From the sequence record OQ708376.1: 64,000 nt of DNA, one strand, 5' to 3'. Position numbers and translations under genes: made by a program. Source of the DNA: Escherichia phage vB_EcoM_CRJP21. The notes beneath the pieces are model-generated. The model worked only from the letters and a program-made list of their open reading frames with translations, made no database searches and had not been told where the DNA came from. Shown here piece after piece: positions 2,842 through 22,390 of the stretch (the stretch's first letter is position 1; the number at the start of each line of letters is the position of its first letter).

Positions 2842-2842
2842 A

Positions 2843-3631: not shown

Positions 3632-3646
3632 TCAGAGGAAATTATC

Positions 3647-3829
3647 ATGCAAATTATCATTCTTATCGTTGGCATCATGCTGGGTGTTTACGGTCACTCC
3701 TGGATGAACGAGAAGTTTCCTAATACGCGTCCTGAGTATTGCAGTTCTAATGTATTCCAGAATGGTGAGAAACCAAAGGAAAGCATTGGTAAAAAGCTGG
3801 ATAAAGTACTTGATGTGATCAATGAATAA
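3647..3829 (+). CDS. small membrane protein (60 aa)
   Basis: GAGGA RBS; N-terminal hydrophobic helix IIILIVGIMLGVY. Confidence 0.45.
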   Translation: MQIIILIVGIMLGVYGHSWMNEKFPNTRPEYCSSNVFQNGEKPKESIGKKLDKVLDVINE

Positions 3830-3839
3830 GGGCCATAAA

Positions 3840-4040
3840 ATGTTTAAACCGAATTCCAATGTTGGTAAGAAAGTTCAATTACTTGAAGATGTATCCACCA
3901 TGAGTGGAATTTTCCCAAGAGGTCACATCATGACTATTATTGCCGAAACATCCCGTGGGTGGGATTTGGAAGATGCTGATGGTAATCGCATCCTTGAGGC
4001 TGGATTCTATGGTCATCGTGAATATAAAATCGTTGATTAA
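3840..4040 (+). CDS. hypothetical protein
   Basis: ORF in track 3822-4040; ATG at 3840 has better RBS spacing (AAGGG N7 ATG). Confidence 0.45.
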   Translation: MFKPNSNVGKKVQLLEDVSTMSGIFPRGHIMTIIAETSRGWDLEDADGNRILEAGFYGHREYKIVD

Positions 4041-4136
4041 GGATACAACATGACTTTAGAGATTGTCTTTGGTATTGTTAGCTTAGTCGTCTGTGTGGGT
4101 TGGTTTGGGTATCTGATGATTTTTAGTGATTAATAC

Positions 4137-4165
4137 TTGACATAAGATATCAGTACTGTATAATG
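4137..4165 (+). promoter_or_regulatory. sigma-70-type promoter TTGACA-N17-TGTATAAT
   Basis: consensus -35 and extended -10 with AGTACTG immediately upstream of -10. Confidence 0.6.
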
Positions 4166-4209
4166 TTTATATCAAACGAAATCCACTTTAACAAATGATA
4201 GGAAATATT

Positions 4210-4488
4210 ATGTCTTTTTCTAAAGAAGAACGTGACCTTATTAAAAAAGCAATCTGGTTTTATGCTAATGAAGGGAAGTGCGATGAAGAAAAAGCACGTG
4301 AACTGTGTAATATCTTTGAGAAGAAACAAGATCTAAAAGTGTATCGTATCCGTGATTTGGATGAAGGGGATCGTATTGTCCTAGCTGAAACAAAAGAAGA
4401 AGCAGAACAAATCTTCACTGATAAAAACGAAAATCCACATTGGATGGAAGAAGTCTGTGATGTTAAAAAAGGTACTTATATCGATTGA
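4210..4488 (+). CDS. hypothetical protein (92 aa)
   Basis: ORF downstream of promoter 4137-4165; ATG at 4210 preceded by AGGAAA. Confidence 0.5.
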   Translation: MSFSKEERDLIKKAIWFYANEGKCDEEKARELCNIFEKKQDLKVYRIRDLDEGDRIVLAETKEEAEQIFTDKNENPHWMEEVCDVKKGTYID

Positions 4489-4513
4489 CAGTACTGAATA
4501 ATAGCAGTATTAT
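4485..4513 (+). promoter_or_regulatory. promoter TTGACA-N17-TATTAT
   Basis: sigma-70-like hexamers overlapping 3' end of upstream ORF. Confidence 0.5.
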
Positions 4514-4526
4514 GTTTTATATAAAA

Positions 4527-4586
4527 GGGAATGCAGTGAAAGGAAAGACAGCATAATCGTACTCGTCACTGCGTTCCCGCCCTTTT
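4527..4586 (+). other. long imperfect hairpin (13 bp arms GGGAATGCAGTGA / TCACTGCGTTCCC) followed by T-run, in 5' leader
   Basis: inverted repeat read directly; lies between promoter 4485-4513 and gene 4608. Confidence 0.5.
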
Positions 4587-4607
4587 AAATTAAATGAGGA
4601 ATTAACT

Positions 4608-4916
4608 ATGTTTCAAACTAACACTCAAGGTTTTGTAATCATCGATTTGAATCAAAACAGCGGTCATTGGATGAAACCTACTGACGCATGTATGCAGTTT
4701 GATTTCTTAGGTTACAAAATTAGTGTAAGTACTGGTGCTTCTGTACTGAGAGGTGGTTGTATCGTTGAACATCTGGTAACTGATCCAGAAGGTCGTGAGT
4801 ATGAAATCGCAGGTTCAGTACAAGATGCCATTATGTTTGTATGTCAGCGTGAAATGAATGGTTCGAATTCAAATGCACTGACTCATGCTCTTTCTCAAGA
4901 AGTGGAGGTTCGTTAA
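4608..4916 (+). CDS. hypothetical protein (102 aa)
   Basis: ORF with GAGGA RBS. Confidence 0.55.
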   Translation: MFQTNTQGFVIIDLNQNSGHWMKPTDACMQFDFLGYKISVSTGASVLRGGCIVEHLVTDPEGREYEIAGSVQDAIMFVCQREMNGSNSNALTHALSQEVEVR

Positions 4917-5161
4917 TGAAATACATTGTAGCAGTACTCGTCGCATTTCTACTCACTGCATGTGATGCTTCTACCAAAGAACGTACAAGTGATTTTGTTC
5001 TACCTGCTGAATTAAAAGAAGCAGGGTGTAAGATTTATCGTATGCAACAAGATGGTGCTGGTGCGACTTTATACACTGTGTACTGTCCTAATGCAAATAC
5101 AAGTACTGGATACACTAGCGGTAAAACACGAATCAACACTTCCGTAATTCATGGAGAATAA
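4916..5161 (+). CDS. putative lipoprotein (signal peptide with lipobox LTAC)
   Basis: N-terminus MKYIVAVLVAFLLTAC; ATGA overlap with upstream gene. Confidence 0.55.
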   Translation: MKYIVAVLVAFLLTACDASTKERTSDFVLPAELKEAGCKIYRMQQDGAGATLYTVYCPNANTSTGYTSGKTRINTSVIHGE

Positions 5162-5163
5162 CA

Positions 5164-5532
5164 ATGAGCCTTGATACAACACGTGCAGCAGATTTATTAA
5201 CTCGTCTGAATGATGAAGAATATCTTGCTGAGATAAAGTACAAGCTTGACAAACTTGTTCGAAGTGCTGAAGTAATTGAAGTTGAAGGTCACTTACCGAT
5301 GGATCAATACCATAGGTTCAAGGAAGATATGGTTTATTATCCTAATGAAATTTGGATTGAGTGGCAACATTGGACTAACAAAACTCTTCGCATTGAAGGG
5401 TATTGTGTGAAGTATGAAAGTTCACCTGGTGATGTTACAAAAACTCTATCAATTTGGTGTACAAAAACAAATGAACTCGTTGAGGTGAATTTGAATTATA
5501 TGAATGGATTCCGTTGGGGTGATGTTAAATGA
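5164..5532 (+). CDS. hypothetical protein (122 aa)
   Basis: ORF, tight packing. Confidence 0.5.
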   Translation: MSLDTTRAADLLTRLNDEEYLAEIKYKLDKLVRSAEVIEVEGHLPMDQYHRFKEDMVYYPNEIWIEWQHWTNKTLRIEGYCVKYESSPGDVTKTLSIWCTKTNELVEVNLNYMNGFRWGDVK

Positions 5533-5804
5533 TTAAAAAACTCTTGACTGGAATCATTGTGTGCAGTACAATGTTTCTTACAGCATGTAATGATGACGGC
5601 AGGTTTAGTGCAAAAGACTTAGTTCGTCAGGATTGTACATTCACAGGTAAGTCTTTTATTAACGAGTATGAAATATGTACACAATCAGGTCGTATCTGTG
5701 GTGGTTGGGAAAAACGTCAGGAGCGATTGTATGTATATGAATGCCCTGGACATCACAACAAAGTACTAAGCACACACAAACTTGTTTATGATAAGGTTGA
5801 ATAA
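5529..5804 (+). CDS. putative lipoprotein (lipobox LTAC)
   Basis: N-terminus MIKKLLTGIIVCSTMFLTAC; several Cys downstream. Confidence 0.55.
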   Translation: MIKKLLTGIIVCSTMFLTACNDDGRFSAKDLVRQDCTFTGKSFINEYEICTQSGRICGGWEKRQERLYVYECPGHHNKVLSTHKLVYDKVE

Positions 5805-6019
5805 TGACTACCAATGAAATGATGCAGGTTATTTGGGATAAAGGTTGTGATATTAAAATCACTAGTACTGATGTTCGTGTATTCAAAACTGAATATATGG
5901 AGTACTTGGACCTTGATACTTATAATAATATTGTATCAATTGAACACAAAGGTGCAGTACTGGAAACCATTGACGTAGTACTCAAGAAAGCTACCGACCT
6001 ATTAGGAGTGGCAGTGTGA
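5804..6019 (+). CDS. hypothetical protein (71 aa)
   Basis: ORF, start overlaps upstream stop. Confidence 0.45.
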   Translation: MTTNEMMQVIWDKGCDIKITSTDVRVFKTEYMEYLDLDTYNNIVSIEHKGAVLETIDVVLKKATDLLGVAV

Positions 6020-6162
6020 ATAACAAAGAGTGGGAAGATTACCGCAAGAAGTGCAGGGAGTTTGATAAAGAACTTACTGGTACAGTGAATGCAGTAATGT
6101 GGGTATCTGTAATTATTGCAGTTCTTGCGTTGGGTGCTATTATTATTAATAAATTATTCTAA
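6016..6162 (+). CDS. small protein with C-terminal transmembrane helix (48 aa, GTG start)
   Basis: GTG 7 nt after AGGAG; hydrophobic VMWVSVIIAVLALGAIII; not in ORF track (short). Confidence 0.3.
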   Translation: MNNKEWEDYRKKCREFDKELTGTVNAVMWVSVIIAVLALGAIIINKLF

Positions 6163-6172
6163 GGCGAATATC

Positions 6173-6373
6173 ATGTTTACTTTATATCTCGCAGTAGTTC
6201 TCACCAATGGTGAAATCACTCGTACTATTGGTGAAGGTGTATATAAAACACCAGACCAGTGCTACTCTGCCACTCATTGGCCTCGCGATAGTGGGGATGA
6301 AACTCGCACTGAATTCAAATGCATGAAAGTAAAAGGTGATTTTGTTAACCTTAAGGTTATCGAGGCGAAATAA
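6173..6373 (+). CDS. hypothetical protein (66 aa)
   Basis: ORF track 6116-6373; internal ATG 6173 preceded by AAGGCGAA. Confidence 0.45.
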   Translation: MFTLYLAVVLTNGEITRTIGEGVYKTPDQCYSATHWPRDSGDETRTEFKCMKVKGDFVNLKVIEAK

Positions 6374-6891
6374 TGGATATTAATGAGTTGTTGAAATTAG
6401 TGTTTAATCGTGAACGCCGCGATACAAGACCAATTGAATATCAAGATGTGATACGCATTGAAACTGATTTCTGTTATGGTAAAACAACTCATGACCTTTT
6501 GAATCTCTCTGGAAAACGCTATGCTGATGTTTGTTTTTCAGAGAGAAGTGATGGTTCAGAAATAACGAGTACTGATATTGTTTGTTACGCACGCAGTGCT
6601 GATAAATCTTATGAAATAGAACTTATATATTCCCCTAGTTCTAAAACAAATCATCACCGCCATATTTTATATGATGTTTACACACCACCTGGTATTGCTG
6701 AATATTTTGTTATTGATTATAGTACTGAAGAAAATGTGTTTCAACAAAGTTTGATTCATAACTTTGAGGTGAATGATCCATTAGTACCAAAGTTGTTCAA
6801 ACTACTTGACACCATCGATGTTGATTTTGAATTTGTTATGTGCATTAGAACTTCTTTATTCAATGAATTCATGGAACTTTTTAATATATGA
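6373..6891 (+). CDS. hypothetical protein (172 aa)
   Basis: ORF, ATGA overlap. Confidence 0.55.
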   Translation: MDINELLKLVFNRERRDTRPIEYQDVIRIETDFCYGKTTHDLLNLSGKRYADVCFSERSDGSEITSTDIVCYARSADKSYEIELIYSPSSKTNHHRHILYDVYTPPGIAEYFVIDYSTEENVFQQSLIHNFEVNDPLVPKLFKLLDTIDVDFEFVMCIRTSLFNEFMELFNI

Positions 6892-7109
6892 ATAGATACT
6901 ATGTTGTGTATGAACACGTCTCTGAATTTAATAACATACGCGGGTTTTCCAGAGTAGTCACCAAGATGGATGTATTCATTCGTGCTCTTAGTGAAGTAGA
7001 TGCACTGTTTAAATTGTTTGATGAAATTACAAAGTATAACACACCTAAAACACACCGCTATGTGGAAACTGTACATAGCATTATGCTAACTGAAAGTGAT
7101 GAGGAATGA
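6888..7109 (+). CDS. hypothetical protein (73 aa)
   Basis: ORF, ATGA overlap. Confidence 0.45.
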   Translation: MNRYYVVYEHVSEFNNIRGFSRVVTKMDVFIRALSEVDALFKLFDEITKYNTPKTHRYVETVHSIMLTESDEE

Positions 7110-7112
7110 TAA

Positions 7113-7331
7113 ATGAATTTATATCTAGTTGAAGGTTTAGTACAAGTCTATAAACCAGAAGGTGAAGGTCAACGTTTTTCACACGTAGAAGAATTTAAGT
7201 ACGTTGTACAGGCTGATGGTCAGTACGATGCGGAAATTCAAGTAGATGAATCATTCCGTAAGAAAAATGAAATTGGTAAATTTCAATACCAGAACTTACA
7301 ATATAAAGTATGGCCTAGTATAAATGACTAA
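7113..7331 (+). CDS. hypothetical protein (72 aa)
   Basis: ORF with GAGGAAT RBS. Confidence 0.5.
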   Translation: MNLYLVEGLVQVYKPEGEGQRFSHVEEFKYVVQADGQYDAEIQVDESFRKKNEIGKFQYQNLQYKVWPSIND

Positions 7332-7539
7332 GATGTGGTGGTGTCATGGTGTATATAACGTGTATGTAAATGGTAGATATAAAATGTCTAGTACCTATGC
7401 AAGACGTGTTAATGCGAACAACCAAGTTGATGCTGCTTGTGAGATCATTGAGTGGTATGCTGAGTTCAATGCACCTGACTATATGTACGAAATAGTTACA
7501 ATAAATGTTGTACAAATCGATACATCTTTGATACAATAA
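7324..7539 (+). CDS. hypothetical protein
   Basis: ORF in track; start uncertain. Confidence 0.35.
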   Translation: MTKMWWCHGVYNVYVNGRYKMSSTYARRVNANNQVDAACEIIEWYAEFNAPDYMYEIVTINVVQIDTSLIQ

Positions 7540-7571
7540 CCACATCAAAAAAATTGCATCTGAGGATACTT

Positions 7572-8234
7572 ATGTTAGTTAATCTTAATTTCATCACTTC
7601 ACCTGACTGGGCATTACGTGGAGTTTCTTTAAACTTCAAGGAAACTATGTTTGACTACATTGGTGAGTGTACATTGGTAAATGCAACTTTTGATCCAAAT
7701 CATCCGTTTTGGGCTGAAATTCATGATCCAAATGTAAACAACAATACATCTGTTATGACTATTGTCCAGACTAAACATGCAGGTATCCTTGCAGGTTATC
7801 GACCTGCACATGCAATTGAACACTTCACTGATTACGATGTCGTGGATGAATACCCAATGATCCATGAAGATGGAAGTCTATACACATCTGAAGACTTCCG
7901 TGCTATCTTTAATAGTACTGATGATATTCTACCAAGTGGACGTCCACGTCCTGAGTCTTATCTTATGCATCCATCTTATGGTGTAGCAGATACGCTTGAA
8001 CAGATTATGAATAAGTACAAGAACCTAATTGAAGGTCCAGAAGAAATTGTCCTGTGCTATCACCCAGTACTGAAGTCTGAACAACCAAAGGATGGTGGAT
8101 GGCGTTGGCATAAGAATGGTGAGTATATCGGTACTAAACGAAGTAAAGAACGTTTTGAGTACTTGTATGATGAGCCAGATGTTGATGTGGTTTTGTGTTA
8201 TAATTTTATTAAGGTGAAAAAGAAATGTATCTAG
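7572..8234 (+). CDS. hypothetical protein (220 aa)
   Basis: ORF track 7554-8234; ATG 7572 follows GAGGA. Confidence 0.55.
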   Translation: MLVNLNFITSPDWALRGVSLNFKETMFDYIGECTLVNATFDPNHPFWAEIHDPNVNNNTSVMTIVQTKHAGILAGYRPAHAIEHFTDYDVVDEYPMIHEDGSLYTSEDFRAIFNSTDDILPSGRPRPESYLMHPSYGVADTLEQIMNKYKNLIEGPEEIVLCYHPVLKSEQPKDGGWRWHKNGEYIGTKRSKERFEYLYDEPDVDVVLCYNFIKVKKKCI

Positions 8235-8467
8235 TACTAAGTTTTGTTGTTGCACTATTGTTTATGTTCTATCCTACACTAGTGGCATTAGCCACTAGAC
8301 GAACGATGGTAGATCTCACTACTGTATTCTTGCTAAACGTGGCATTAGTACTGGTGTCTATTATCATTCCAGTGAGCTTTACAGTTATTGATATTATTTC
8401 GGTATTACTCTTCGTGTTAAGTTATCTTATGCTTATTGAAGAAACAAATGTTGACAAACGTTCGTAG
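8225..8467 (+). CDS. small membrane protein (80 aa)
   Basis: two hydrophobic helices; start overlaps upstream gene. Confidence 0.45.
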   Translation: MYLVLSFVVALLFMFYPTLVALATRRTMVDLTTVFLLNVALVLVSIIIPVSFTVIDIISVLLFVLSYLMLIEETNVDKRS

Positions 8468-8479
8468 TACTGTATAATG
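8451..8479 (+). promoter_or_regulatory. promoter TTGACA-N17-TGTATAAT
   Basis: consensus hexamers, AGTACTG before -10. Confidence 0.6.
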
Positions 8480-8524
8480 GTTCCTGTAGTCTGAAACTTA
8501 ACACTTAAACTTGAGGTAAAAAAT

Positions 8525-8851
8525 ATGCTATCAGTACTAATTTCAATTCCGTCTTTAATTCTGATTTGGCTTCTGGTTTACGAATGCTTTATTACTGATG
8601 ATAATGATAAAAAAGAGTTCTCTGAGTTGTTTATGCTTGATTCACCGATTGTGCGTATTTTCTATACAGTAGTTGTGGTTTCAGTAATTGTATGGGTTTT
8701 GAGTTTTATCTTCCCACTCGGTGCAGTAGTTAAAACTTTGGATTTAGTTGAGAACTTTGTTGCAATTATGTGGCTAATCAAAGCACTATTTGCAGGAAAT
8801 GTTAAAATTTGGATTGATATTATCAAATTCAAGTTCACGAATAAGATGTAA
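8525..8851 (+). CDS. membrane protein (108 aa)
   Basis: GAGG RBS; multiple hydrophobic segments. Confidence 0.5.
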   Translation: MLSVLISIPSLILIWLLVYECFITDDNDKKEFSELFMLDSPIVRIFYTVVVVSVIVWVLSFIFPLGAVVKTLDLVENFVAIMWLIKALFAGNVKIWIDIIKFKFTNKM

Positions 8852-8929
8852 CAGTGAAAATATCTCTATAGTATTAAATACTTCTGTACATATATATAGT
8901 ACAGAAGTATTTCTCGTTAGAGGTTTGTT

Positions 8930-9289
8930 ATGAAGAGTTATATAAAATTAATAGCACTTGTGTGTGCATTATTTTCATGTTTTAGTTATGGTGCAGCAGC
9001 AGAAACATATTGTCGTAGTACTAAGGGAACGTGGCATGTATTGACTAACGACCCTAGAAATGGTAAAAATATAGTTGTTGATGGTGTGATTTATCGTTTT
9101 AAAGTAGAAAGTATTATCGGTAATAAAAAAATCTCGACTTATAGAGATGATTCTGGTACATTAGCAAACGTAATATTAATTGTAGACCCAAGAACTGGTA
9201 ATGGTGATATCTATATAGTAATTTACTTGGACTCATCGGTACGCCGTGACCTAGATATAGATAAATTGAACTTACACTGTGAAATATAG
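8930..9289 (+). CDS. secreted protein (signal peptide)
   Basis: N-terminus MKSYIKLIALVCALFSCFSYGAAAE. Confidence 0.5.
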   Translation: MKSYIKLIALVCALFSCFSYGAAAETYCRSTKGTWHVLTNDPRNGKNIVVDGVIYRFKVESIIGNKKISTYRDDSGTLANVILIVDPRTGNGDIYIVIYLDSSVRRDLDIDKLNLHCEI

Positions 9290-9300
9290 GACTTAAAAAA

Positions 9301-9678
9301 ATGGTAAACACTATTTTACTTTTGTTGTTGAATATTCCAATTATTCTGTCTTTTTTAATTTCTATTTTTATGGCAGGATATTGTTTAGTTGCAGTAATTC
9401 ATTTCATTTTAACAAACAAATATGTCCTAATTTCTAAGCTTGATTCTATTTTTGCTTGCGATTCGATTGCTTATAACTTGTGGTTAATTTGTTCTTGCAT
9501 TATGGGAGTAACTTTCCTTCTGTATGTATTTGATGTCCTTGACCAAAAGTTCGTATACATCAGTACTGGATTGGCTCTTTATCCTGCTACGTGGTACTTG
9601 ATTTACGTTGGTGATATATGGTATAGTACTTATAAAGAATATCAGTACAAGAAATCACTTAACGTTGGAGGAAAATAA
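9301..9678 (+). CDS. membrane protein (125 aa)
   Basis: multiple hydrophobic helices. Confidence 0.5.
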   Translation: MVNTILLLLLNIPIILSFLISIFMAGYCLVAVIHFILTNKYVLISKLDSIFACDSIAYNLWLICSCIMGVTFLLYVFDVLDQKFVYISTGLALYPATWYLIYVGDIWYSTYKEYQYKKSLNVGGK

Positions 9679-9680
9679 TC

Positions 9681-10031
9681 ATGAAAATTATTTTATTTTT
9701 TGTATGTATGTTAATGTGTGGATTGTCATATGCTGAACCATTGGAAGGTTTAGTTTGTACAGATGGTAATATTAAACATATCTATCAAGGTGATAGTGAC
9801 GATCGAGATATTGTATATATTGATGGACAATCATATACGTTTGTTAAAGAGCATACAGTAGGCGACATTAGCTTCACTGAGTTTTCTAACGACACAGACC
9901 CTAACTTCTTAGCGTTTATTGAAGTAGATGTATATGAAGATAGTAATGGCACACAATATGCTAAATTAGTTATGATGCGTCGTGGTGCTAAAGAAACTAG
10001 TTTTGGTGGCTTGTGTAAATATAAGGATTGA
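9681..10031 (+). CDS. secreted protein (signal peptide)
   Basis: GGAGG RBS; N-terminus MKIILFFVCMLMCGLSYAEP. Confidence 0.55.
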   Translation: MKIILFFVCMLMCGLSYAEPLEGLVCTDGNIKHIYQGDSDDRDIVYIDGQSYTFVKEHTVGDISFTEFSNDTDPNFLAFIEVDVYEDSNGTQYAKLVMMRRGAKETSFGGLCKYKD

Positions 10032-10035
10032 TATT

Positions 10036-10227
10036 ATGTTGATTTATCAAAGTGATAATATTCGTGTTATGCAGCATCCCTACTTACAAATCTTTGATGT
10101 GCAGCAGTATATGGAAGGTGATGACCCAAGAACCTATGGTCGTAAGTATGATTACTTCACTGTAAAGCAGTGTAAAAATATTAACGAAGTACGACAATTA
10201 GTTCAAGAACTTCAAAACAAAGGTTGA
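10036..10227 (+). CDS. hypothetical protein (63 aa)
   Basis: ORF track 9982-10227; ATG 10036 after AAGGA. Confidence 0.45.
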   Translation: MLIYQSDNIRVMQHPYLQIFDVQQYMEGDDPRTYGRKYDYFTVKQCKNINEVRQLVQELQNKG

Positions 10228-10256
10228 CTTCGGTCAGCCTTTTTTGTTATAATTCT
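10221..10256 (+). terminator. bifunctional terminator/promoter element (GGTTGAC-TTCG-GTCAGCC + T-run; -35 TTGACT in stem, TATAAT downstream)
   Basis: 8 bp stem with UUCG loop and T5; TTGACT-N18-TATAAT. Confidence 0.7.
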
Positions 10257-10281
10257 CTTAATAAATTAGAGGATTTTAATT

Positions 10282-10722
10282 ATGTATGTATATCGTTTTG
10301 AACTTAAATTCAGTTACATTGAACCTAACTTAGAACCTGCACGAACTGTAGGTCCGTTTGCACGGTATTCAACCAGATACAGTACTAAAAATGGATTTGA
10401 CCGTTTGCTTATGACTACACCTTCTCAATTCCAACCTGAACCAACTGAGGATGGGATCTATTCAATCAAAAGTGGATGGGTATTTGGCTGTCAAAGTTTG
10501 AAAGATTTGTTCAGATTCTTCACTATGGACTTGGGTAAATTGCATCGTGCTGGGTTTGCTATATCTGTATATGAAGTTCCAGACCACCATGTAGACATTG
10601 GTCGTAATCAGGTTCAGTACTATTGCGGTAGTGCTAAATTAGTTCGTATCATGTCAGTTAAGGAAGCAAAGGATGAGTTCCGACAAAGTAAAAGAGAAAC
10701 ACATGAGGTAATATATGGATAA
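10282..10722 (+). CDS. hypothetical protein (146 aa)
   Basis: GAGGAT RBS. Confidence 0.55.
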   Translation: MYVYRFELKFSYIEPNLEPARTVGPFARYSTRYSTKNGFDRLLMTTPSQFQPEPTEDGIYSIKSGWVFGCQSLKDLFRFFTMDLGKLHRAGFAISVYEVPDHHVDIGRNQVQYYCGSAKLVRIMSVKEAKDEFRQSKRETHEVIYG

Positions 10723-11059
10723 AACTCAAATAGAATTAAAGAAATTTGTTTCATTCTATCTTCCTGATGACCCACGTAATTCACAAAAAGATATTGAATA
10801 TTATAATATCCTATCTAAACAGTTAATGAGAAAGTTTCAACAGTGTTTAACTATATTCAATACAGATGGAAGACGTAGATACCGAATCGTTTCAATGAAT
10901 GATGAAAACGCAAATTTCTTTGATTACGATGTAGTTTTTAGAGCATATAATGATGATCGTATAAAATTAAATTATGATCAAATTATACTTGACCTGAATG
11001 TTATATGTGTTATAATCACTCACGTAGCCGAACTTAATGGTTTTAAAGAATGGTATTGA
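10715..11059 (+). CDS. hypothetical protein (114 aa)
   Basis: overlapping start. Confidence 0.5.
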   Translation: MDKTQIELKKFVSFYLPDDPRNSQKDIEYYNILSKQLMRKFQQCLTIFNTDGRRRYRIVSMNDENANFFDYDVVFRAYNDDRIKLNYDQIILDLNVICVIITHVAELNGFKEWY

Positions 11060-11073
11060 ATAGAGGATAACAT

Positions 11074-11340
11074 ATGAAGCTTAAATTACAATATAATGGA
11101 TTTACTTTACGTAATGATACTGAATTTATTAATCGTTCTCCTGGTGCTGAACTGTTTTTACGAGAGATGAACATTCCTTTCATCATTACTACAGTGGGCG
11201 ACCGTGAAGTTCTACAATATGCAGAGCATCCGATTATTGATGTTCCTTGGTACTCTGAGCATATGTACATGGATATGGCACGTCGCTACAACTGTAAGTT
11301 CGTAGTTGAAGGTGATAAAATTACAGTCGAATTTAAATAA
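11074..11340 (+). CDS. hypothetical protein (88 aa)
   Basis: GAGGAT RBS. Confidence 0.5.
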   Translation: MKLKLQYNGFTLRNDTEFINRSPGAELFLREMNIPFIITTVGDREVLQYAEHPIIDVPWYSEHMYMDMARRYNCKFVVEGDKITVEFK

Positions 11341-11352
11341 GGTAAATTAAAA

Positions 11353-11646
11353 ATGATCAGTACTTCAGTTAATGAAAGCATCGTCGCTGACGTAGAAATG
11401 GTTAAAGAATGTGCAGATGAAACTCTTCGTGATATGTACATTAATGATTTAATTACTGAATACGGTAGTCGTGGTGTACACGAATTTATTCGTTTAAGTG
11501 GAGAGTTGATGAAAAATCGAATTCGTATGAAGCTTAACGTACATCCAAAAGCATGGGCATTTACATTAAAATACGCAGAAGATATTGTTAATTTGCGTCG
11601 AACTGAAGTATATGAACGTTTGCACAATGGTATGTTAGATAAATGA
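11353..11646 (+). CDS. hypothetical protein (97 aa)
   Basis: ORF in track. Confidence 0.5.
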   Translation: MISTSVNESIVADVEMVKECADETLRDMYINDLITEYGSRGVHEFIRLSGELMKNRIRMKLNVHPKAWAFTLKYAEDIVNLRRTEVYERLHNGMLDK

Positions 11647-11655
11647 TTGTAAAAT

Positions 11656-11685
11656 AGGAATTCTTAAATGAATTCCTTTTTGTTT
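11656..11685 (+). terminator. intrinsic terminator (AGGAATTC-N-GAATTCCT + T-run)
   Basis: perfect inverted repeat followed by TTTTTGTTT. Confidence 0.65.
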
Positions 11686-11698
11686 ATAAGGTATAGTA

Positions 11699-11920
11699 AT
11701 GAAATATATAGTACTTGTACTGATATTATTCAGTACTGTTGTAAGTGCTAAACAAAAAGAATATGTTAAATGTATAAATTATGAAGAGAAATATGTTGAA
11801 ACATATAAAAAAAGTATAATTAAAAACGTTTCGATTACTAACAGAGCAACAATCATTGTACTTAAAAATGGGTTAATTATGCTATATAAACCACACGTTA
11901 AATGTGAAATTATTAATTGA
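11699..11920 (+). CDS. secreted protein (signal peptide)
   Basis: N-terminus MKYIVLVLILFSTVVSA. Confidence 0.5.
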   Translation: MKYIVLVLILFSTVVSAKQKEYVKCINYEEKYVETYKKSIIKNVSITNRATIIVLKNGLIMLYKPHVKCEIIN

Positions 11921-11927
11921 GGAAATT

Positions 11928-12500
11928 ATGAATCGTAAAGGTCGTTTTAAAGTATCAAAAAAGAACAAAAGTTCTAGGTTTAAACCTATTGTTTTAACAG
12001 TTAAATCTAACAAAGATTTAACTGCACTTAGTAAAAAGATAATTTCATCTAAGATTGAAGTATCATACGTAAATTCATTAAAATATATGAATGTCAAACC
12101 ACTGGACCAACTCATTTCACTTATATTTGAACGTAATGATTTTGAGATATCAGTAGATGATTATAGAGCCTATAATGCTGGTTTCATTAATGTTACTTGT
12201 AATAAAAAACTAACTGAGTTGGAAAATTTGTCATGTATAATAAATCTAGATAAAGGTGTTGTGAAGTACCATTTTGTACATTTCACTAATATCAATAATG
12301 GAATGGGTGTACAATCCAGACCTATAGTGCCTACGTGTGATGTTACTAAATTAGCAAAGCTCAATGATGAAGAATATTTTCAAGAAAGCATTGTAACTGA
12401 GCATTTAGATGATATAATAGCTACTTACAAAGAATGCATATGGGTGTTGAATGCTATAAAACCTAAATTGTGTTTAATGAATATTGTTCGTGATTTATGA
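11928..12500 (+). CDS. hypothetical protein (190 aa)
   Basis: ORF track 11904-12500; ATG 11928 after GAGGAAAT. Confidence 0.5.
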   Translation: MNRKGRFKVSKKNKSSRFKPIVLTVKSNKDLTALSKKIISSKIEVSYVNSLKYMNVKPLDQLISLIFERNDFEISVDDYRAYNAGFINVTCNKKLTELENLSCIINLDKGVVKYHFVHFTNINNGMGVQSRPIVPTCDVTKLAKLNDEEYFQESIVTEHLDDIIATYKECIWVLNAIKPKLCLMNIVRDL

Positions 12501-12513
12501 ATGGGGAATCGTA

Positions 12514-12957
12514 ATGAGTTGGGTAAATGTTAATAGTATTGAACTTAACGAACAAGATATTTTTGCATTTGTAAATTTAACTAATAACACAGTACTAAAA
12601 GGGCGTTTGTTCAGTGCTAGTGATGGGTACAAATGGATCTCTTTGATGGATGATAGTGGTGTGATTTATAATGTAATGCAATTACCCCAATGGGTATATA
12701 GTAACACTGCTGACGATGTTCTTACCGCAGTTATGCGTGAGTTTGAAAAACTCCCAGGTGGTGATATCAAAAACAAAGTTTTTAATGCAGAACGTAAAAA
12801 TTATACAGCACAGCAATTGGAATCCCTTGCCATTGCTGCTTATCAAGCTGCTATTAAGAAGCCAGAGTGCGTTATTCTTAAGTATGTACCAGACTTAAAA
12901 CTTACGTTGGAAGACATGGATGCATTCATTTTTACATCTGAACTTGAACAGTACTAA
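12514..12957 (+). CDS. hypothetical protein (147 aa)
   Basis: ORF track 12484-12957; ATG 12514 after GGGGAATCG. Confidence 0.5.
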   Translation: MSWVNVNSIELNEQDIFAFVNLTNNTVLKGRLFSASDGYKWISLMDDSGVIYNVMQLPQWVYSNTADDVLTAVMREFEKLPGGDIKNKVFNAERKNYTAQQLESLAIAAYQAAIKKPECVILKYVPDLKLTLEDMDAFIFTSELEQY

Positions 12958-13072
12958 TTTAACTTTGGGACAACCATTCTTATTATGATATAATGTTTTA
13001 TGTCATTCGATATAAATGACAACGGAACTATAAATATTATAGTAAAATTTATCTCTTATAGGAGTTATAAAA

Positions 13073-13456
13073 ATGGTTGATAAATGGAATAAGAAAGATC
13101 CATCACATGATGTTGATATTTCTGGTCTAGACAATGCACATAAGCACAAGTATCTAGATTCACTAGGTCTTCTAAAACCAGACCAAAGTCTTGCACATGA
13201 TCGTCCATCCCGTGAAAAAGCATTTAGCCTAGAATCACTAGGTCATGAGCTTAATCGTGTGTTTGAGGATCACCCAATCTATGTACGTGATATTATCGAG
13301 AAACTTAAAGTAACTCCTAAAGAGCACTTTAAAGCAACTGTACACTCTGCATTCCGTGCATTGCATGATTCTCTAAAGAAAACTCACAATCTTCGTAAAA
13401 TTCATGATGAAATCGTGAATGCAATCGAAAGTGAAAAACATAAGTTCAAGAAGTAA
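13073..13456 (+). CDS. hypothetical protein (127 aa); shares LDSLGLL motif with 13727-15214
   Basis: AGGAG RBS. Confidence 0.55.
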   Translation: MVDKWNKKDPSHDVDISGLDNAHKHKYLDSLGLLKPDQSLAHDRPSREKAFSLESLGHELNRVFEDHPIYVRDIIEKLKVTPKEHFKATVHSAFRALHDSLKKTHNLRKIHDEIVNAIESEKHKFKK

Positions 13457-13461
13457 TAAAA

Positions 13462-13496
13462 AGGGGTTGACTAAGGTCAGCCCTTTGTTGTATCAT
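13462..13496 (+). terminator. bifunctional terminator/promoter element (variant loop TAAG)
   Basis: GGGGTTGAC-TAAG-GTCAGCCC + T-run; TATCAT downstream. Confidence 0.6.
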
Positions 13497-13525
13497 AACT
13501 TCTCAATATAACTGAGGTATCATAT

Positions 13526-13639
13526 ATGCAAGGTTTGAAATTTGTAGTTGCTGCACTCATCGCCGCAGTTCTGGTTGGTGGTGTATTCTATGTAGTGGAT
13601 CAAAAAGTAAATCCACCTGCACAAGAACAATCTAAGTAA
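13526..13639 (+). CDS. small membrane protein (37 aa)
   Basis: TGAGGT RBS N7 ATG; single hydrophobic helix; flanked by terminator/promoter elements on both sides; below ORF-track size cutoff. Confidence 0.4.
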   Translation: MQGLKFVVAALIAAVLVGGVFYVVDQKVNPPAQEQSK

Positions 13640-13646
13640 CAAAATA

Positions 13647-13680
13647 AGGTTGACTTCGGTCAGCCTTTTCTTTATACTAT
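13647..13680 (+). terminator. bifunctional terminator/promoter element
   Basis: GGTTGAC-TTCG-GTCAGCC + T-run; TATACT downstream. Confidence 0.65.
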
Positions 13681-13726
13681 AAATATAGTCATAGAGAAAA
13701 AAATGAAATCTATGGAGAGAAATCAA

Positions 13727-15214
13727 ATGCCAAGTAATTTTACTGATAAAAATGGTGGTAACATGGCTGGTCACTCTGATAAATGGAGTGAACGCAACCG
13801 CCGTCCAAATAGTTATCAAGCAGGTCAAGGTTCACGTGGGTCACGTAACCAAGGAACTGGTCTAGCTGGTAAAGCAAACGCAGAAGCAGGTGAAGTTAAG
13901 AGTACTGAGAACATGACTGAGCTAGAAAAGCTACGTTATGTTAACTCATTAGGTCTTCTTAACGCAACACAAAAACAACGCCTTGCTGATATGGAACGTG
14001 CTGAGAAAGAACAAGCAGTTCCTAAAGAAGAACCAAAAGCAGAAGTACCTAAAGCTGCTAACCCTGTTAAAGAGTTATCAGATAACTTAGGTAAGATCTT
14101 TGCTAACAAACCACAGTTGATTCAGGGTATTGTCAAAGCACTACAGGCAGTTCCTAAAGAAGAACTCAAAGGTAAAGCACAAGCTGTACTTGATGTAATG
14201 AAAGGTAATAAGAGCACTGAACCAACTGAAGTATTCAGTACTATCATGCGTGCACTTGAAGGTACACACAAAGAAGATTCCAAAGAACCTGAACAGGGTG
14301 AAGCAAGTCTTGATGGTATTCTTAAAACTTTTGATAATATTGGTAAAGCAGACCGTGCTAATGCCCAGCAAGTCAAGAATGTACTGGCTAAACTTGAAAA
14401 CCGTTTAGAAGGTAAAGACAATAAGGTTAAGCTCGTATCAGATGCAGTTAACAGTGCACTTAAATCTTATGTACAAGGTGAGAAAAGTCGCTTCGTAACA
14501 GCTATGGATGCTGCATTCAACACTATGAAAAAGTATGAAGCAGAACATGGTGAGAAGGTAACACCAGATGGTTATCTAAAGCGTGCAGATGAAGAGGGTG
14601 CAGTTGAACAGAAAGATGTTGAGCCTGAGCAAGAAGAAATACCTGATACCGTTGATATGGATGGATACATTCATCGTCCTGAGATGGAAGAGTTTGGGTC
14701 AGATAAAGAAGGTTTTGAACATGCAATGGCAGTATATAAAGCATTAGTTAAAAATCCAGATTATGCTAACCGTTTTGTTGACGAGTTTGATAGTGCATGG
14801 AATAACTACAAAGAGAAAGGTTATGACTTCCCTGCTGAAGCTGCATTCTTTGAACTTGGTAAACTATTAGCTAAACATGGAATTGACGTTGGTTCATCTG
14901 ATTCCGAAGGTATGGAAGAAGAACATCTTGAAATGACCGATAAATCAATTCATGAACTTCAAAAGCTAATGATGTGGATATCCGAGATTGGCAAAAAAGC
15001 AGGTGCTGATCGTAAAAGTATCAACAAAAACATTAGTTGGATTAAAGATAATGTTGGTAACAATGCTCGTAAACTTCAAAAGGCGTGGGCTGATTTAGTA
15101 AATGGTGCAGATGATGTTGACATTGAATCACCAGAAGCATATGAGTATGCACTAACTACACTTGATAACTCATTCAAAGAGTACGACAGTGGTGTTGGAA
15201 AGGATAAAAAATAA
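13727..15214 (+). CDS. large acidic Lys/Glu-rich protein (about 495 aa), unknown function
   Basis: ORF track 13703-15214; ATG 13727 after GGAGAG; low-complexity acidic composition. Confidence 0.55.
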   Translation: MPSNFTDKNGGNMAGHSDKWSERNRRPNSYQAGQGSRGSRNQGTGLAGKANAEAGEVKSTENMTELEKLRYVNSLGLLNATQKQRLADMERAEKEQAVPKEEPKAEVPKAANPVKELSDNLGKIFANKPQLIQGIVKALQAVPKEELKGKAQAVLDVMKGNKSTEPTEVFSTIMRALEGTHKEDSKEPEQGEASLDGILKTFDNIGKADRANAQQVKNVLAKLENRLEGKDNKVKLVSDAVNSALKSYVQGEKSRFVTAMDAAFNTMKKYEAEHGEKVTPDGYLKRADEEGAVEQKDVEPEQEEIPDTVDMDGYIHRPEMEEFGSDKEGFEHAMAVYKALVKNPDYANRFVDEFDSAWNNYKEKGYDFPAEAAFFELGKLLAKHGIDVGSSDSEGMEEEHLEMTDKSIHELQKLMMWISEIGKKAGADRKSINKNISWIKDNVGNNARKLQKAWADLVNGADDVDIESPEAYEYALTTLDNSFKEYDSGVGKDKK

Positions 15215-15223
15215 ACATTTAAA

Positions 15224-15260
15224 AGGTTGACTTCGGTCAACCTTTTTTTGTAAATATAAA
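15224..15260 (+). terminator. bifunctional terminator/promoter element (perfect stem GGTTGAC/GTCAACC)
   Basis: UUCG-loop hairpin + T7. Confidence 0.7.
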
Positions 15261-15285
15261 AGAGGAATTAAGAAGAGGGATTACA

Positions 15286-15537
15286 ATGAAAAAATATATT
15301 ATATTTGGAATTGTATTATTTTCCAGTACTAGTTATGGTGCAGATTATCATTGCTCCGTAGCAAGACAGGATTTCAGAAATGGGGATTTCTATACCACTT
15401 CATACACAAAAGGAATAATACACGACATCGACACAACTATTGGATTTAATGCATTTGATAACAAAGATTCATATACTTCAGGTATACTATCTGAGCGTAA
15501 GACTGATGTAATGGGAATAGAAAAAGAGTTCCGGTGA
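15286..15537 (+). CDS. secreted protein (signal peptide)
   Basis: N-terminus MKKYIIFGIVLFSSTSYGA. Confidence 0.5.
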   Translation: MKKYIIFGIVLFSSTSYGADYHCSVARQDFRNGDFYTTSYTKGIIHDIDTTIGFNAFDNKDSYTSGILSERKTDVMGIEKEFR

Positions 15538-15547
15538 TTCAGTAGCA

Positions 15548-15871
15548 ATGTGCAATGACATTGAAAGTACTAAAACAATTTATTATAATAATGAACGTAA
15601 TTATCGTTTTCATAATTTAACCACAAATAAAAGTTTACTATTTTACAATTGTAAAGAAGTAAAACTCCCACCCGACAATAGCTGTAACCCGACGAACCCA
15701 TCACCAGCACAATGTAATACTCAATCTGAACCTGATAACAATAAAAAAGACAAAGATAAAGATAAAAAAGAAGACAAAAAACCTTTAAAAGATAAAAAGA
15801 AAGATAAAAAACCTAATCCGTTTAAAAATAATAAACCAGCACAACCCGATATGACGTGTAAAATAAAATAA
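15548..15871 (+). CDS. Cys-containing protein with Lys/Asp-rich low-complexity tail
   Basis: ORF in track; weak RBS; KDKDKDKKEDKK repeat. Confidence 0.3.
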   Translation: MCNDIESTKTIYYNNERNYRFHNLTTNKSLLFYNCKEVKLPPDNSCNPTNPSPAQCNTQSEPDNNKKDKDKDKKEDKKPLKDKKKDKKPNPFKNNKPAQPDMTCKIK

Positions 15872-15880
15872 GGATATATA

Positions 15881-16300
15881 ATGAAAAAGATTTTTTTAAG
15901 TATTATTTTAGTACTTTTTAGTTTTAATGTATATGCAGCAGATGCTAAACAGGTTGCAAATACAGTAAAAGATGTTATAGTAGATAATGCTCCTACATTA
16001 GAGGAAATTGGGGTAAAAACTTGTGATATAGTAATATATAATTTAGTTAATGATGAACGAGTTATGTTGAATACGTATGAACAAGTAGTCCCATTGGTTG
16101 AATCTGGTGATGCTTTTAGCTTTACATATAAAGTTAAATTAACAGGAGGGGTTGAAGTTAATCTTGACATTGATACCGCTTCAGTACTAAAAGATAAACT
16201 AGGATATGTGTTCAATCGTATTCGTGAAGAAGGTCATCTTAAGTATGTTTATGAAAGTAAAATACTAAAACGTGCAATAGTTATAGAAAACTGTAAATGA
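15881..16300 (+). CDS. secreted protein (signal peptide)
   Basis: N-terminus MKKIFLSIILVLFSFNVYAADA. Confidence 0.55.
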   Translation: MKKIFLSIILVLFSFNVYAADAKQVANTVKDVIVDNAPTLEEIGVKTCDIVIYNLVNDERVMLNTYEQVVPLVESGDAFSFTYKVKLTGGVEVNLDIDTASVLKDKLGYVFNRIREEGHLKYVYESKILKRAIVIENCK

Positions 16301-16307
16301 TAATAAA

Positions 16308-16340
16308 AGGGTTGACTTCGGTCAGCCTTTTTTGTTATGA
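16308..16340 (+). terminator. bifunctional terminator/promoter element
   Basis: GGGTTGAC-TTCG-GTCAGCC + T6. Confidence 0.7.
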
Positions 16341-16369
16341 TGTTGATATTAACTACAGAGGATAAAGTA

Positions 16370-17011
16370 ATGACTAAGCAAGAAATATTCAAAACTTTAA
16401 TTGACATTTTGCGTCCATCAAAAACTCGTTGTGCGATGGAGTTTGATATTCCTTATGCTGAACGCGTAATCTTTCCACAAGTTAAAGCTGCTGGACTTAC
16501 TTTGCTTGGAATGGGGATGTACTCTGTAGTAGTTGAACATAAAAACTATCCTGGACGAGCATTTAAAGTAACCACTTCACGCTGGGATGGTTTTCGTGCT
16601 TATGCAAAGTACTGCATTGAAAACGCAGGAACCAAGTTTCTTCCAGTGATCTACAGTGCCAACGAACAAGGAAACTTTGGATGGTATGAGATGGACAAGT
16701 ACTATCCTATAATTAAACAAAAAAATAATTATGATGACTTTGTTAGTACTAAAATTGGAGATTTGTATTCGTATGCACATGCTGGTCAGTACGCAACTTC
16801 AGTGAATGATATGCGTGGAAATTCTGAAGAGATTGCTATTGCAACGGTCGCTGCTAACATCATGAAAGAGTTTCACGGGCGTTTTGTACCAGACATTCAT
16901 TCAAGTAATGTGATGATGGATAAAGATGGGAATGTATTCATTACTGATCCTCTTTCGTGTGATGTGCGTAGAGAAATACCAATTACTGAAGAAGATCCAG
17001 TTTTTTATTGA
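16370..17011 (+). CDS. hypothetical protein with possible kinase/phosphotransferase-like motif (DIHSSNVMMDKDGNVFITD)
   Basis: ORF track 16337-17011; ATG 16370 after GAGGA; motif-level resemblance only. Confidence 0.5.
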   Translation: MTKQEIFKTLIDILRPSKTRCAMEFDIPYAERVIFPQVKAAGLTLLGMGMYSVVVEHKNYPGRAFKVTTSRWDGFRAYAKYCIENAGTKFLPVIYSANEQGNFGWYEMDKYYPIIKQKNNYDDFVSTKIGDLYSYAHAGQYATSVNDMRGNSEEIAIATVAANIMKEFHGRFVPDIHSSNVMMDKDGNVFITDPLSCDVRREIPITEEDPVFY

Positions 17012-17072
17012 CAGAACTGATGTTCTGATGTATTCTTAATAAACCATAAAAATTGCGGTAAAGGATAAAATC

Positions 17073-17354
17073 ATGCGTTCATTTGAAAACTTAATAGGTA
17101 AGCATCTTTTATCTGAAATTGATGCAGACGTTAAAGAATTATCCAAATCAAAAAGTTACATTCATTTGGATGAACTGTTTGTTAAGTACGGTGAGATTGG
17201 TTTTAAGTCATTATTTGTTTTTACTATGAAAGTACATAGTTTAAAGTACTTCGATTTGAGTGCTAAAGATGGTGAACCGAATCTATATTACATGTATTAC
17301 CTTAAGAACAAAGATGAAGCTAATACATTACTCTCTGAATATATATTGGGGTAA
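17073..17354 (+). CDS. hypothetical protein (93 aa)
   Basis: AGGA RBS. Confidence 0.5.
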   Translation: MRSFENLIGKHLLSEIDADVKELSKSKSYIHLDELFVKYGEIGFKSLFVFTMKVHSLKYFDLSAKDGEPNLYYMYYLKNKDEANTLLSEYILG

Positions 17355-17356
17355 AA

Positions 17357-17695
17357 ATGGAACAATATTTTGAATTAATAAACAAAGTATCATTTTATGT
17401 AGTATCTTTGGTTTGGGTGTATTATATGTTTTGCTATATTATTGCATTCTTCCGATACACTACTTTATATGAACGTATCTACTATGATGCCCCAATTTCA
17501 TTCTTGATGTTTTGTGCCTGTACGTGGGGAATATTAGAAGTACTGATATGTGGGTATAGTACTGATGAATTAAATCTGGTATCGGTGTTGACTGGGTTTT
17601 CATTTGTTGTTATGATAGCTGCCGTTCCAGTATGGTTGTTCTTTGGACTAGTTCATCGCATTGATATATGGCGTTCTAATATCCCTGAAAAGTAA
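17357..17695 (+). CDS. small membrane protein, paralog family member (array A, 1 of 3)
   Basis: hydrophobic helices; C-terminal R-x-N-[ILM]-P-[EN]-[KRE] tail shared with 10 other ORFs. Confidence 0.55.
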   Translation: MEQYFELINKVSFYVVSLVWVYYMFCYIIAFFRYTTLYERIYYDAPISFLMFCACTWGILEVLICGYSTDELNLVSVLTGFSFVVMIAAVPVWLFFGLVHRIDIWRSNIPEK

Positions 17696-17704
17696 GGATT
17701 GGTA

Positions 17705-18046: not shown

Positions 18047-18047
18047 T

Positions 18048-18392: not shown

Positions 18393-18401
18393 GAGACATA
18401 T

Positions 18402-22079: not shown

Positions 22080-22083
22080 CATA

Positions 22084-22375: not shown

Positions 22376-22390
22376 ATTGGAGATTTGTAT

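Follow-up and report, generated by a model that had tools for sequence, protein, structure and literature searches.

Why does a jumbo phage carry a string of small exported proteins in one short part of its genome, and what would these proteins do in the infected cell? We addressed this question for positions 4916-16300 of a 64,000-nucleotide stretch of Escherichia phage vB_EcoM_CRJP21 (record OQ708376.1), referred to here as the window, in which each open reading frame (ORF) is named by its start position. Rak2-like jumbo phages are considered for therapy, and more than 80% of their genes are without a function; the cluster provides a short, well-delimited list of candidates for the way such phages change the envelope. 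Should any of them prove to exclude other phages, this would bear on how phage cocktails are designed, and the factors would be new and structurally distinct exclusion factors.

Export signals concentrated in one stretch

The original prediction held that at least seven ORFs within about 11 kb begin with export signals, two with an LTAC lipobox (4916 and 5529) and five with ordinary signal peptides (8930, 9681, 11699, 15286 and 15881), interspersed with small membrane proteins. We applied a rule test demanding a positively charged n-region without acidic residues, an uncharged h/c run of 10-26 amino acids (aa), an 8-aa core with a Kyte-Doolittle (KD) hydropathy of at least 2.2, a -3/-1 site or a lipobox, and no later transmembrane (TM) segment. 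All seven ORFs passed, as two lipobox proteins and five Sec-type signal-peptide proteins (Table 1). They lie on the + strand at the predicted starts, each with a purine-rich Shine-Dalgarno (SD)-like motif 5-12 nucleotides (nt) upstream of the full-length ATG. The pattern [LVI][ASTVI][GAS]C after a positive N-terminus and a short hydrophobic stretch is present in 4916 and 5529, and the h-regions of the five other proteins, with 11-14 residues, are below membrane-anchor length. The TM proteins 6016, 8225, 8525, 9301 and 13526 lie in between, and this structural part of the prediction is borne out.

The cluster is real and goes far beyond chance. Inside 4900-16300, 7 of the 30 coding-strand ORFs passed the rule test, against 1 of 123 (49124) in the rest of the window (Fisher P = 4e-5); among wrong-strand ORFs, 2 of 44 passed. 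The same test was run genome-wide on OR844650.1, an unannotated 352-kb genome 98.8% identical to the window phage, and gave 15 positive ORFs (14 from a greedy gene set, plus the 15881 homologue missed by that set). Seven of them fall inside one 11.4-kb stretch, which makes up 3.2% of the genome (binomial P = 1.9e-7; ~6e-6 after correction for window position). That a single stretch accounts for roughly half of the exported proteins predicted genome-wide is new; exported accessory proteins in phage early regions are an already known phenomenon, and the sequences were already public as hypothetical proteins.

The window belongs to Asteriusvirus. Over its full length, region 4900-16400 shares 99.2% identity with Escherichia phage PBECO4. 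Its identity to other Asteriusvirus myophages with genomes of ~350 kb, among them 121Q, phAPEC6, Sharanji and SP27, is 95-99%, and a second Asteriusvirus lineage (fEgEco12, WPEC3, CMSTMSU) shows about 86% identity. The export signals are kept in the fEgEco12 and RaK2 orthologues at 31-93% identity, including those at only 31-62%, despite diverged mature parts. In fEgEco12 all signals are kept, with mature parts 41-93% identical, and the Sec signal peptides are retained in fEgEco12 or RaK2 orthologues at 31-78% identity. The number of cysteines in the mature part is even in six of the seven proteins, the exception being 15286 with a single one. The Cys pairs are invariant in the family alignments of 4916, 5529 and 8930/9681, and both cysteines of 11699 and 15881 are kept at 40-49% identity (a single fEgEco12 orthologue each). 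Because the cysteines are paired, conserved and co-varying, we infer that the exported proteins form disulfide bonds in the periplasm.

Could the signals be meaningless, or the ORFs not genes, in an AT-rich genome whose N-termini are rich in Phe, Ile and Leu? The GC content of 32-36% and the two positive wrong-strand ORFs speak for such an origin. The enrichment (P = 4e-5 in the window and ~2e-7 genome-wide), the SD motifs, dN/dS ratios below 1 wherever they are computable, and the retention of signals, lipobox cysteines and Cys pairs across genera all argue against it and leave this reading extremely improbable. We consider it very likely that the seven ORFs encode genuinely exported, functional accessory proteins.

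Table 1. Features of the cluster region. In the fourth column the hyphen marks the site given by the rule test and is followed by the next residue.
Position	Strand	Feature	Export or cleavage site	Remarks
4916..5161	+	lipoprotein precursor, 81 aa	lipobox, MK...LLTAC, Cys16, +2 Asp; MKYIVAVLVAFLLTAC-D	SD motif GGAGG; phrog_902, E = 1.5e-13
5529..5804	+	lipoprotein precursor, 91 aa, four Cys in mature part	lipobox, MIKK...FLTAC, Cys20, +2 Asn; MIKKLLTGIIVCSTMFLTAC-N	phrog_31263
6016..6162	+	48-aa protein, C-terminal TM (residues 26-44, KD 2.84)		closes overlapping 4608-6162 string
8225..8467	+	80-aa predicted inner-membrane protein, 2 TM		conserved counterpart RaK2 ORF263
8451..8478	+	sigma70 consensus promoter, TTGACA-16-TATAAT		upstream of 8525
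8525..8851	+	108-aa membrane protein, 3 TM, partner of 8930		orthologue RaK2 ORF264
8930..9289	+	119-aa signal-peptide protein; mature part predicted 8-stranded beta-barrel, invariant C28 and C117	...FSYGAAA-E (SYG/AAA)	
9301..9678	+	125-aa membrane protein, 3 TM, partner of 9681 (3-nt gap)		RaK2 ORF266
9681..10031	+	116-aa signal-peptide protein	...GLSYA-E	paralogue of 8930
10220..10241	+	PeSL-like hairpin (terminator)		carries -35 box of next promoter
11699..11920	+	73-aa signal-peptide protein, 2 conserved Cys in mature part	...TVVSA-K	two allele classes, at least 95% or ~49% identical
13526..13639	+	37-aa single-TM protein		followed in fEgEco12 by extra membrane-protein and signal-peptide pair g553/g554
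13646..13667	+	PeSL-like cassette		
15223..15244	+	PeSL-like cassette		upstream of 15286
15286..15537	+	83-aa signal-peptide protein, single mature Cys	...STSYG-A	signal peptide kept in orthologue
15548..15871	+	107 aa, no export signal, 5 conserved Cys, Lys/Asp-rich tail		uncertain role in exported set
15881..16300	+	139-aa signal-peptide protein, 2 conserved Cys	...FNVYA-A	fastest-diverging gene of region; 41% identity between Asteriusvirus lineages
16308..16329	+	PeSL-like cassette		closes 15286-16300 module

Public annotation reflects little of this. The PBECO4 RefSeq record gives "hypothetical protein" for nearly all genes of 4900-16400, and its starts for the 8930, 9681 and 15881 homologues are placed downstream of the signal peptide; in phAPEC6, 4916, 5529 and 8930 are unannotated. 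The fEgEco12 record carries the label "lytic conversion lipoprotein" on the homologues of 4916, 5529 and 15286, for which we found no reproducible support, and on the 15286 orthologue the lipoprotein label is wrong, a signal peptide being present without a lipobox. Records that start 8930, 9681 and 15881 too late, omit 4916, 5529 and 8930 or bear unsupported lipoprotein labels can be corrected accordingly. Our literature search found no publication treating the genes of the 4916-16300 cluster.

The envelope-directed gene set probably starts to the left of 4916, given two further ORFs there. One, 2405-2614, encodes 69 aa with a hydrophobic N-terminus, two cysteines and no basic n-region, and has RaK2 ORF246 as its homologue; the other, 3647-3829, encodes 60 aa with an N-terminal anchor and is a possible counterpart of RaK2 ORF249, judged by eye only. 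In OR844650.1, a rule-positive 151-aa signal-peptide protein is encoded at 23202-23657, about 2 kb outside the left end of the region corresponding to the window; two more rule-positive lipoproteins, of 102 and 77 aa (210094-210402 and 226656-226889), could be spanin components.

Divergence, promoters and terminator/promoter cassettes

How does the region evolve? Compared with fEgEco12, the five signal-peptide genes have a median identity of 62% and a median rate of nonsynonymous substitution (dN) of 0.28, against 88% and 0.066 for 19 cytoplasmic neighbours, that is, an approximately fourfold faster divergence (Mann-Whitney P = 9e-5). Divergence is just as fast in the membrane partners 8525, 9301 and 13526 (58%, 42% and 59% identity; 42.5% for 9301) and slow in the lipoproteins 4916 and 5529 (88-93%). 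The ratio of dN to the synonymous rate dS (omega) is 0.20-0.44 for 11699, 15286 and 15881, and cannot be computed for 8930 and 9681, whose dS is saturated. These values point to signal-peptide genes that are constrained by purifying selection and whose alleles are deeply diverged, which fits a variable interaction partner and is not proof of positive selection. For 15881, tblastn recovered two allele classes, with at least 99% identity in 20 records and ~41% in 12; this gene, 11699 and 15286 are confined to Asteriusvirus. Presence varies too: 4916 and 5529 are missing from the syntenic RaK2 block, and g548 and g553/g554 are additional in fEgEco12.

Perfect sigma70 promoters are found at 4137 and 8451, and the unit 8525-8930-9301-9681-10036 is bounded by the latter and by the putative terminator hairpin at 10220. 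This hairpin belongs to a repeated cassette: the motif AAGGTTGACTTCGGTCAGCCTT has eight copies on the + strand (10220, 13646, 15223, 16308, 20803, 22085, 24043 and 52964), where none is expected. The aligned copies read, in order, A-run, hairpin, T-run, TATAAT, about 20 nt, SD and ATG; the hairpin is GGTTGAC-TTCG-GTCAGCC, with the -35 box TTGACT inside the stem and a TTGACT-17-TATAAT spacing. Eight copies are likewise present in fEgEco12 (2558, 10683, 14277, 15057, 16638, 17320, 21942 and 22525), where they flank the extra module g552-g553-g554 (one TM, multi-TM and signal-peptide protein) and divide g556/g557 from g558. Lineage-specific genes and indels adjoin the cassettes, for example g553/g554, a protein kinase (16337-17011) and 21538-24034.

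In T4-type phages, terminator/promoter cassettes known as PeSLs flank variable ORFs (PMC2839356; PMC4122927). The sequence found here has the same defining features, a terminator-like hairpin joined to a near-consensus sigma70 promoter and repeated between small lineage-variable ORFs, beside indels. It differs from the T4-type elements in its hairpin sequence, whose stem contains the -35 box, and in its hosts, Rak2-like jumbo phages; no mention of jumbo phages was found in the PeSL paper PMC4122927. From the perfect sigma70 sites and the cassettes, the region, which is hyperplastic, is probably expressed early, and its exported-protein genes are probably shuffled as cassettes.

A mass-spectrometry list of phAPEC6 virion proteins includes none of the exported and membrane proteins of the region, which contributes only gp035c and gp037c, the homologues of 13703-15214 and 13073-13456. 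These two genes are 94-97% conserved, Lys/Glu-rich, free of export signals and virion-associated amid an early-type region; their products could be packaged and ejected with the DNA.

One pair of genes in the last module required a separate decision. A gap of 10 nt separates 15286 from ORF 15548, which is in the +1 frame relative to it, and the junction CCGGTGA is conserved. A single frameshifted gene was attractive in that one plus five cysteines would give an even number across 15286 and 15548. We rejected it as less likely: CCGGTGA can be taken as an SD located 9 nt ahead of the start codon of 15548, and the sole A-run (GAAAAAG) is absent in fEgEco12, so that no conserved slippery site is a candidate. 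Two translationally coupled genes would be the simpler reading. For 15548, PHROGs gave no family match.

Candidate functions in the envelope

We lean towards the view, moderately probable to us, that this hyperplastic and probably early stretch of Asteriusvirus concentrates envelope-directed accessory genes whose products alter the envelope to the phage's advantage. The host RNA polymerase would transcribe the units soon after infection, the products would reach the inner membrane and the periplasm, and the envelope would be changed in favour of the phage, the likeliest effect being a block on the entry of superinfecting phages; an alternative effect would be the protection or regulation of peptidoglycan. 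The 8930/9681 barrels might bind and inhibit a murein hydrolase, for example the tail lysozyme of an incoming phage, with the logic of Spackle and a PliC/MliC-like fold. As a main role we rank superinfection exclusion or entry blocking first, as a possibility that stops short of probable, because T4 Imm/Spackle and T5 Llp are precedents of the same format in virulent coliphages. By analogy the cluster may work like Llp/Cor, Imm, Spackle or MliC/PliC; this does not make it a member of any of these families.

The original prediction had also proposed that exported accessory proteins of this kind mediate superinfection exclusion or envelope modification. Its "exported accessory" half stands, on the conserved signals and paired cysteines, the variable presence and sequence, the early-type promoter-rich region and the lack of detection in phAPEC6 virions. 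The functional half is plausible, and each specific link that we tried (Cor, the PDB searches, Imm) failed or stayed below threshold.

Several results weigh against an envelope-modifying role in an early region. Searches of Pfam, NCBIfam and PADLOC gave no significant match for the cluster proteins, and sub-threshold family matches (TrbK, lipoprotein families, Stx2B leader) covered signal peptides only; in PHROGs, all above-noise matches are of unknown function. The fast divergence, with saturated dS and omega below 1, may reflect old alleles or relaxed constraint instead of an arms race. Sigma70-like sites in 2000-18500 are not above shuffled sequence (74, with 80.6 expected). The predicted 8930/9681 barrel fold is generic, and unrelated barrels match it as well as or better than PliC does.

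The two lipoproteins invite comparison with phage receptor-masking factors. By the +2 rule, which comes from established E. coli lipoprotein-sorting work, 4916 would probably stay in the inner membrane (+2 Asp), and the destination of 5529 would be the outer membrane (+2 Asn). The 4916 family was found in 571 phage records (tblastn). Its members are spread across Felixounavirus, Vequintavirinae, Vibrio and Erwinia phages, in every case amid small early/replication-region genes, and most of them, like 4916, have Asp at +2. In its alignment (47 sequences), C16, P30, C38 and P58 never vary, and C57 and K70 hardly do. Its AlphaFold2 (AF2) model is of low confidence, with a predicted local distance difference test (pLDDT) score of only 64.6, and has no PDB fold match. 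A precomputed PF16225 tag on all 4916-family proteins was not reproduced with Pfam even at E <= 10, and we do not rely on it. That 4916 is part of so widespread and uncharacterised a lipoprotein family is a new finding, and since several hundred phage genomes from unrelated groups encode a member, one experiment would inform the annotation of many genomes. By contrast, 5529 is found in Asteriusvirus, with homologues of ~40% identity in the 7t3/SE_PL/fENko-Kae01 jumbo phages. Its lipobox, C36 and C72 are invariant, including the lipobox Cys in the 40%-identical 7t3 homologue, and C50 and C57 are either both present or both absent. The stop and start codons of genes 4608-6162 overlap.

The early lipoprotein Llp of T5 jams FhuA from the periplasm (PMC9586334), and its production by this virulent phage begins soon after infection (10.64898/2026.03.26.714494). 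If 4916 and 5529 were of the Llp/Cor type, both would bind the periplasmic face of the phage's own outer-membrane receptor, so that progeny would not be wasted on cell debris and related phages would be excluded. Their format agrees with this: they are small (66 and 72 aa mature), with predicted intramolecular Cys pairs, as are T5 Llp (61 aa, Cys11-Cys58) and T1/phi80 Cor, phage lipoproteins of ~60-70 mature residues with an intramolecular disulfide. A weak match to the Cor PHROG (E = 0.008) and the fEgEco12 labels, themselves without reproducible evidence, point the same way, and porin-targeting virulent phages typically encode receptor-masking factors (PMC11990801). The Cor match, however, spans residues 1-48, mostly signal peptide, and amounts to no sequence relationship with Llp/Cor. 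PDB sequence searches with sequences or profiles of 4916, 5529, 15286 and 15881 and with the 8930/9681 profile returned no significant chain, and none of Llp, Spackle or MliC/PliC. The mature cysteines stand at 11 and 58 in Llp and at 23 and 42 in 4916. The absence of a Lol-avoidance residue at +2, a feature of outer-membrane sorting, is seen in 5529 (Asn) and not in 4916 (Asp), which predicts the inner membrane for the latter. The neighbours of 4916 and 5529 are small hypothetical genes, without an adjoining receptor-binding protein gene, and the same is true of the 4916-family neighbours in Felixounavirus, Certrevirus and Vibrio phages. With no significant sequence relation, we rejected the identification of 4916/5529 as Llp/Cor, and we think receptor masking by both lipoproteins unlikely.

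Entry blocking, which we rank first, has a parallel in T4, where Spackle, made early and located in the periplasm, inhibits the tail lysozyme gp5 (PMC7677548) and both Imm and Spackle block the entry of superinfecting phages (PMC7677548; T4 record). Spackle (gp61.3) and Imm are early genes of a virulent myophage, one for a periplasmic signal-peptide protein and the other for a small inner-membrane protein, and here too signal-peptide proteins are paired with small membrane proteins. The T4 genes are not adjacent, however, whereas the membrane and periplasmic genes adjoin here in a conserved arrangement. Spackle is helical, in contrast to the predicted beta-barrel of 8930. The 8225-type 2-TM proteins carry a motif FYPTLVA..RR...FLLN resembling YMLPWFIALMRG of Imm. 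Against PF14373 (Imm_superinfect; gathering score 27.9 bits, T4 Imm itself 58.2 bits), 8225 gave no match, and RaK2 ORF263 (13.4 bits) and fEgEco12 g548 (15.7 bits) remained below threshold. A link of the 2-TM proteins to T4 Imm was rejected as unsupported, with an hhalign probability of 3.8% and a phmmer search that returned four close relatives and no bridge; these four are the only relatives of 8225 among 1.8 billion representative proteins.

The central unit, 8525-8930-9301-9681, is a conserved arrangement. RaK2, of another genus, keeps ORF263 (2 TM), ORF264 (3 TM), ORF265 (signal peptide), ORF266 (3 TM) and ORF267 (signal peptide) in the order 8225-8525-8930-9301-9681. The unit is common to Asteriusvirus and Alcyoneusvirus, and similar pairs are gained or lost in relatives; a membrane-protein/beta-barrel block conserved across two jumbo-phage genera is new. 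The paralogy of 8930 and 9681 is apparent from BLAST (E = 2.5e-4), a PHROGs cross-hit, and a common invariant Cys pair and Asp. Their family, confined to Rak2-like phages, has a hydrophobic N-terminus in all 21 aligned sequences, and C28, D41 and C117 are its sole invariant mature residues. In the structure model of 8930, which is confident, the invariant cysteines sit on the first and last barrel strands; the fold class of 8930/9681 is shown by the model, and a function is not implied by the fold. A tandem duplication of the whole two-gene module was rejected, no homology being detected between 8525 and 9301. One ancestral family for all five signal-peptide proteins was rejected too, only 8930/9681 being demonstrably paralogous: when their profile was compared by hhalign with 11699, 15286, 15881, g554, 49124 and RaK2 ORF273, no probability exceeded 32%, and the similarity lay mostly in the signal peptide.

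Do the barrels inhibit lysozyme? A small eight-stranded periplasmic beta-barrel, the format of MliC/PliC (including Brucella PhiA and Neisseria ACP), is what is predicted for 8930/9681. None of the 21 family members matches the MliC Pfam family, structural-alignment identity to these inhibitors is 4-11%, and avidins, outer-membrane barrels, Cap15 and designed barrels score at or above the PliC level. A fold search of BFVD returned mainly the 8930/9681 family itself, with weak matches (E ~0.025, template-modelling score 0.4-0.5) to a "lipoprotein" and to a protein named "putative lysozyme inhibitor" in a Serratia phage. That 8930/9681 are inhibitors of lysozyme (murein hydrolase) is a specific but weak guess, and in our opinion improbable. 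Somewhat less doubtful, though still speculative, is that 8525-8930-9301-9681 would form an undescribed two-component envelope system of jumbo phages, made of a polytopic inner-membrane protein and a disulfide-stapled periplasmic barrel; one possible mode is a membrane-tethered trap acting against the cell-wall-digesting tail enzyme of superinfectors or against DNA entry.

The same pairing can be read in terms of lysis timing. In the periplasm of T4-infected cells, RI detects superinfection and holds holin T in check; by analogy, the 3-TM proteins 8525 and 9301 would be holin-like, and 8930 and 9681 their periplasmic antiholin-like or sensor partners. Like class I holins, both membrane proteins (108 and 125 aa) combine three TM segments with a basic C-terminus, and each is tightly linked to its periplasmic partner, with only 3 nt between 9301 and 9681 and the pairing kept in RaK2. 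The region, however, contains no endolysin or spanin gene, and no holin family was matched in PHROGs or Pfam. The topology is not diagnostic, since the window encodes at least 11 small multi-TM (mostly 3-TM) proteins, including the paralogue arrays at 17357-18046 and 24946-27726. The periplasmic domain of T4 RI is helical, unlike a beta-barrel, and an early-type promoter is atypical of holins. Lysis timing is, in our estimate, an unlikely role. Even less probable would be a takeover of the host envelope or a counter-defence, in which the targets would be host proteases, envelope-stress sensors or membrane-acting abortive-infection effectors and not other phages; nothing specific points to it, and neither PADLOC nor the other family libraries gave a match.

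Other features of the window

The envelope-directed gene content extends well past 4916-16300, with arrays of 104-141 aa membrane proteins at 17357-18046 and 24946-27726, nearly all with three predicted TM segments. BLAST links 17357, 17705 and 27355 as relatives (E 1e-10 to 7e-6), 24946 and 25275 are 47% identical, and there is a homologue in RaK2, ORF280.

No tRNA genes were found in the 64-kb window. An array of paralogues of ~400 aa, with the annotation RCC1-like "chromosome/DNA condensation" protein, occupies 28411-39432 on the - strand; several members are in the phAPEC6 virion proteome, and identity to the fEgEco12 copies is only 28-85%. It is followed at 39535-43585 by at least 14 tandem paralogues of 59-77 aa (N-termini such as MNKEHKEFY), whose copy number and order differ in fEgEco12. 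At 44627-44754 there is an iteron-like array with an 8-nt period (GGATGGCT / AGACGGCT / AAACGGCT), near both the minimum of the cumulative GC skew (~44 kb) and the point where the coding strand changes. This array may represent an origin or some other site of protein binding.

Between 44000 and 64000 there are at least 24 copies of a further promoter-like cassette, with the sequence AAAAAGTACTTGCA-N17-GTATAAT-GTTTTACAT and a short GC hairpin after it; it lies upstream of almost every small + strand gene there. A related class reads TATTGACA...AGTACTGTATAAT. The ORFs 45529, 50620 and 60414, with "MFYIERGK" starts, are apparently the AAAAAGTACTTGCA cassette translated.

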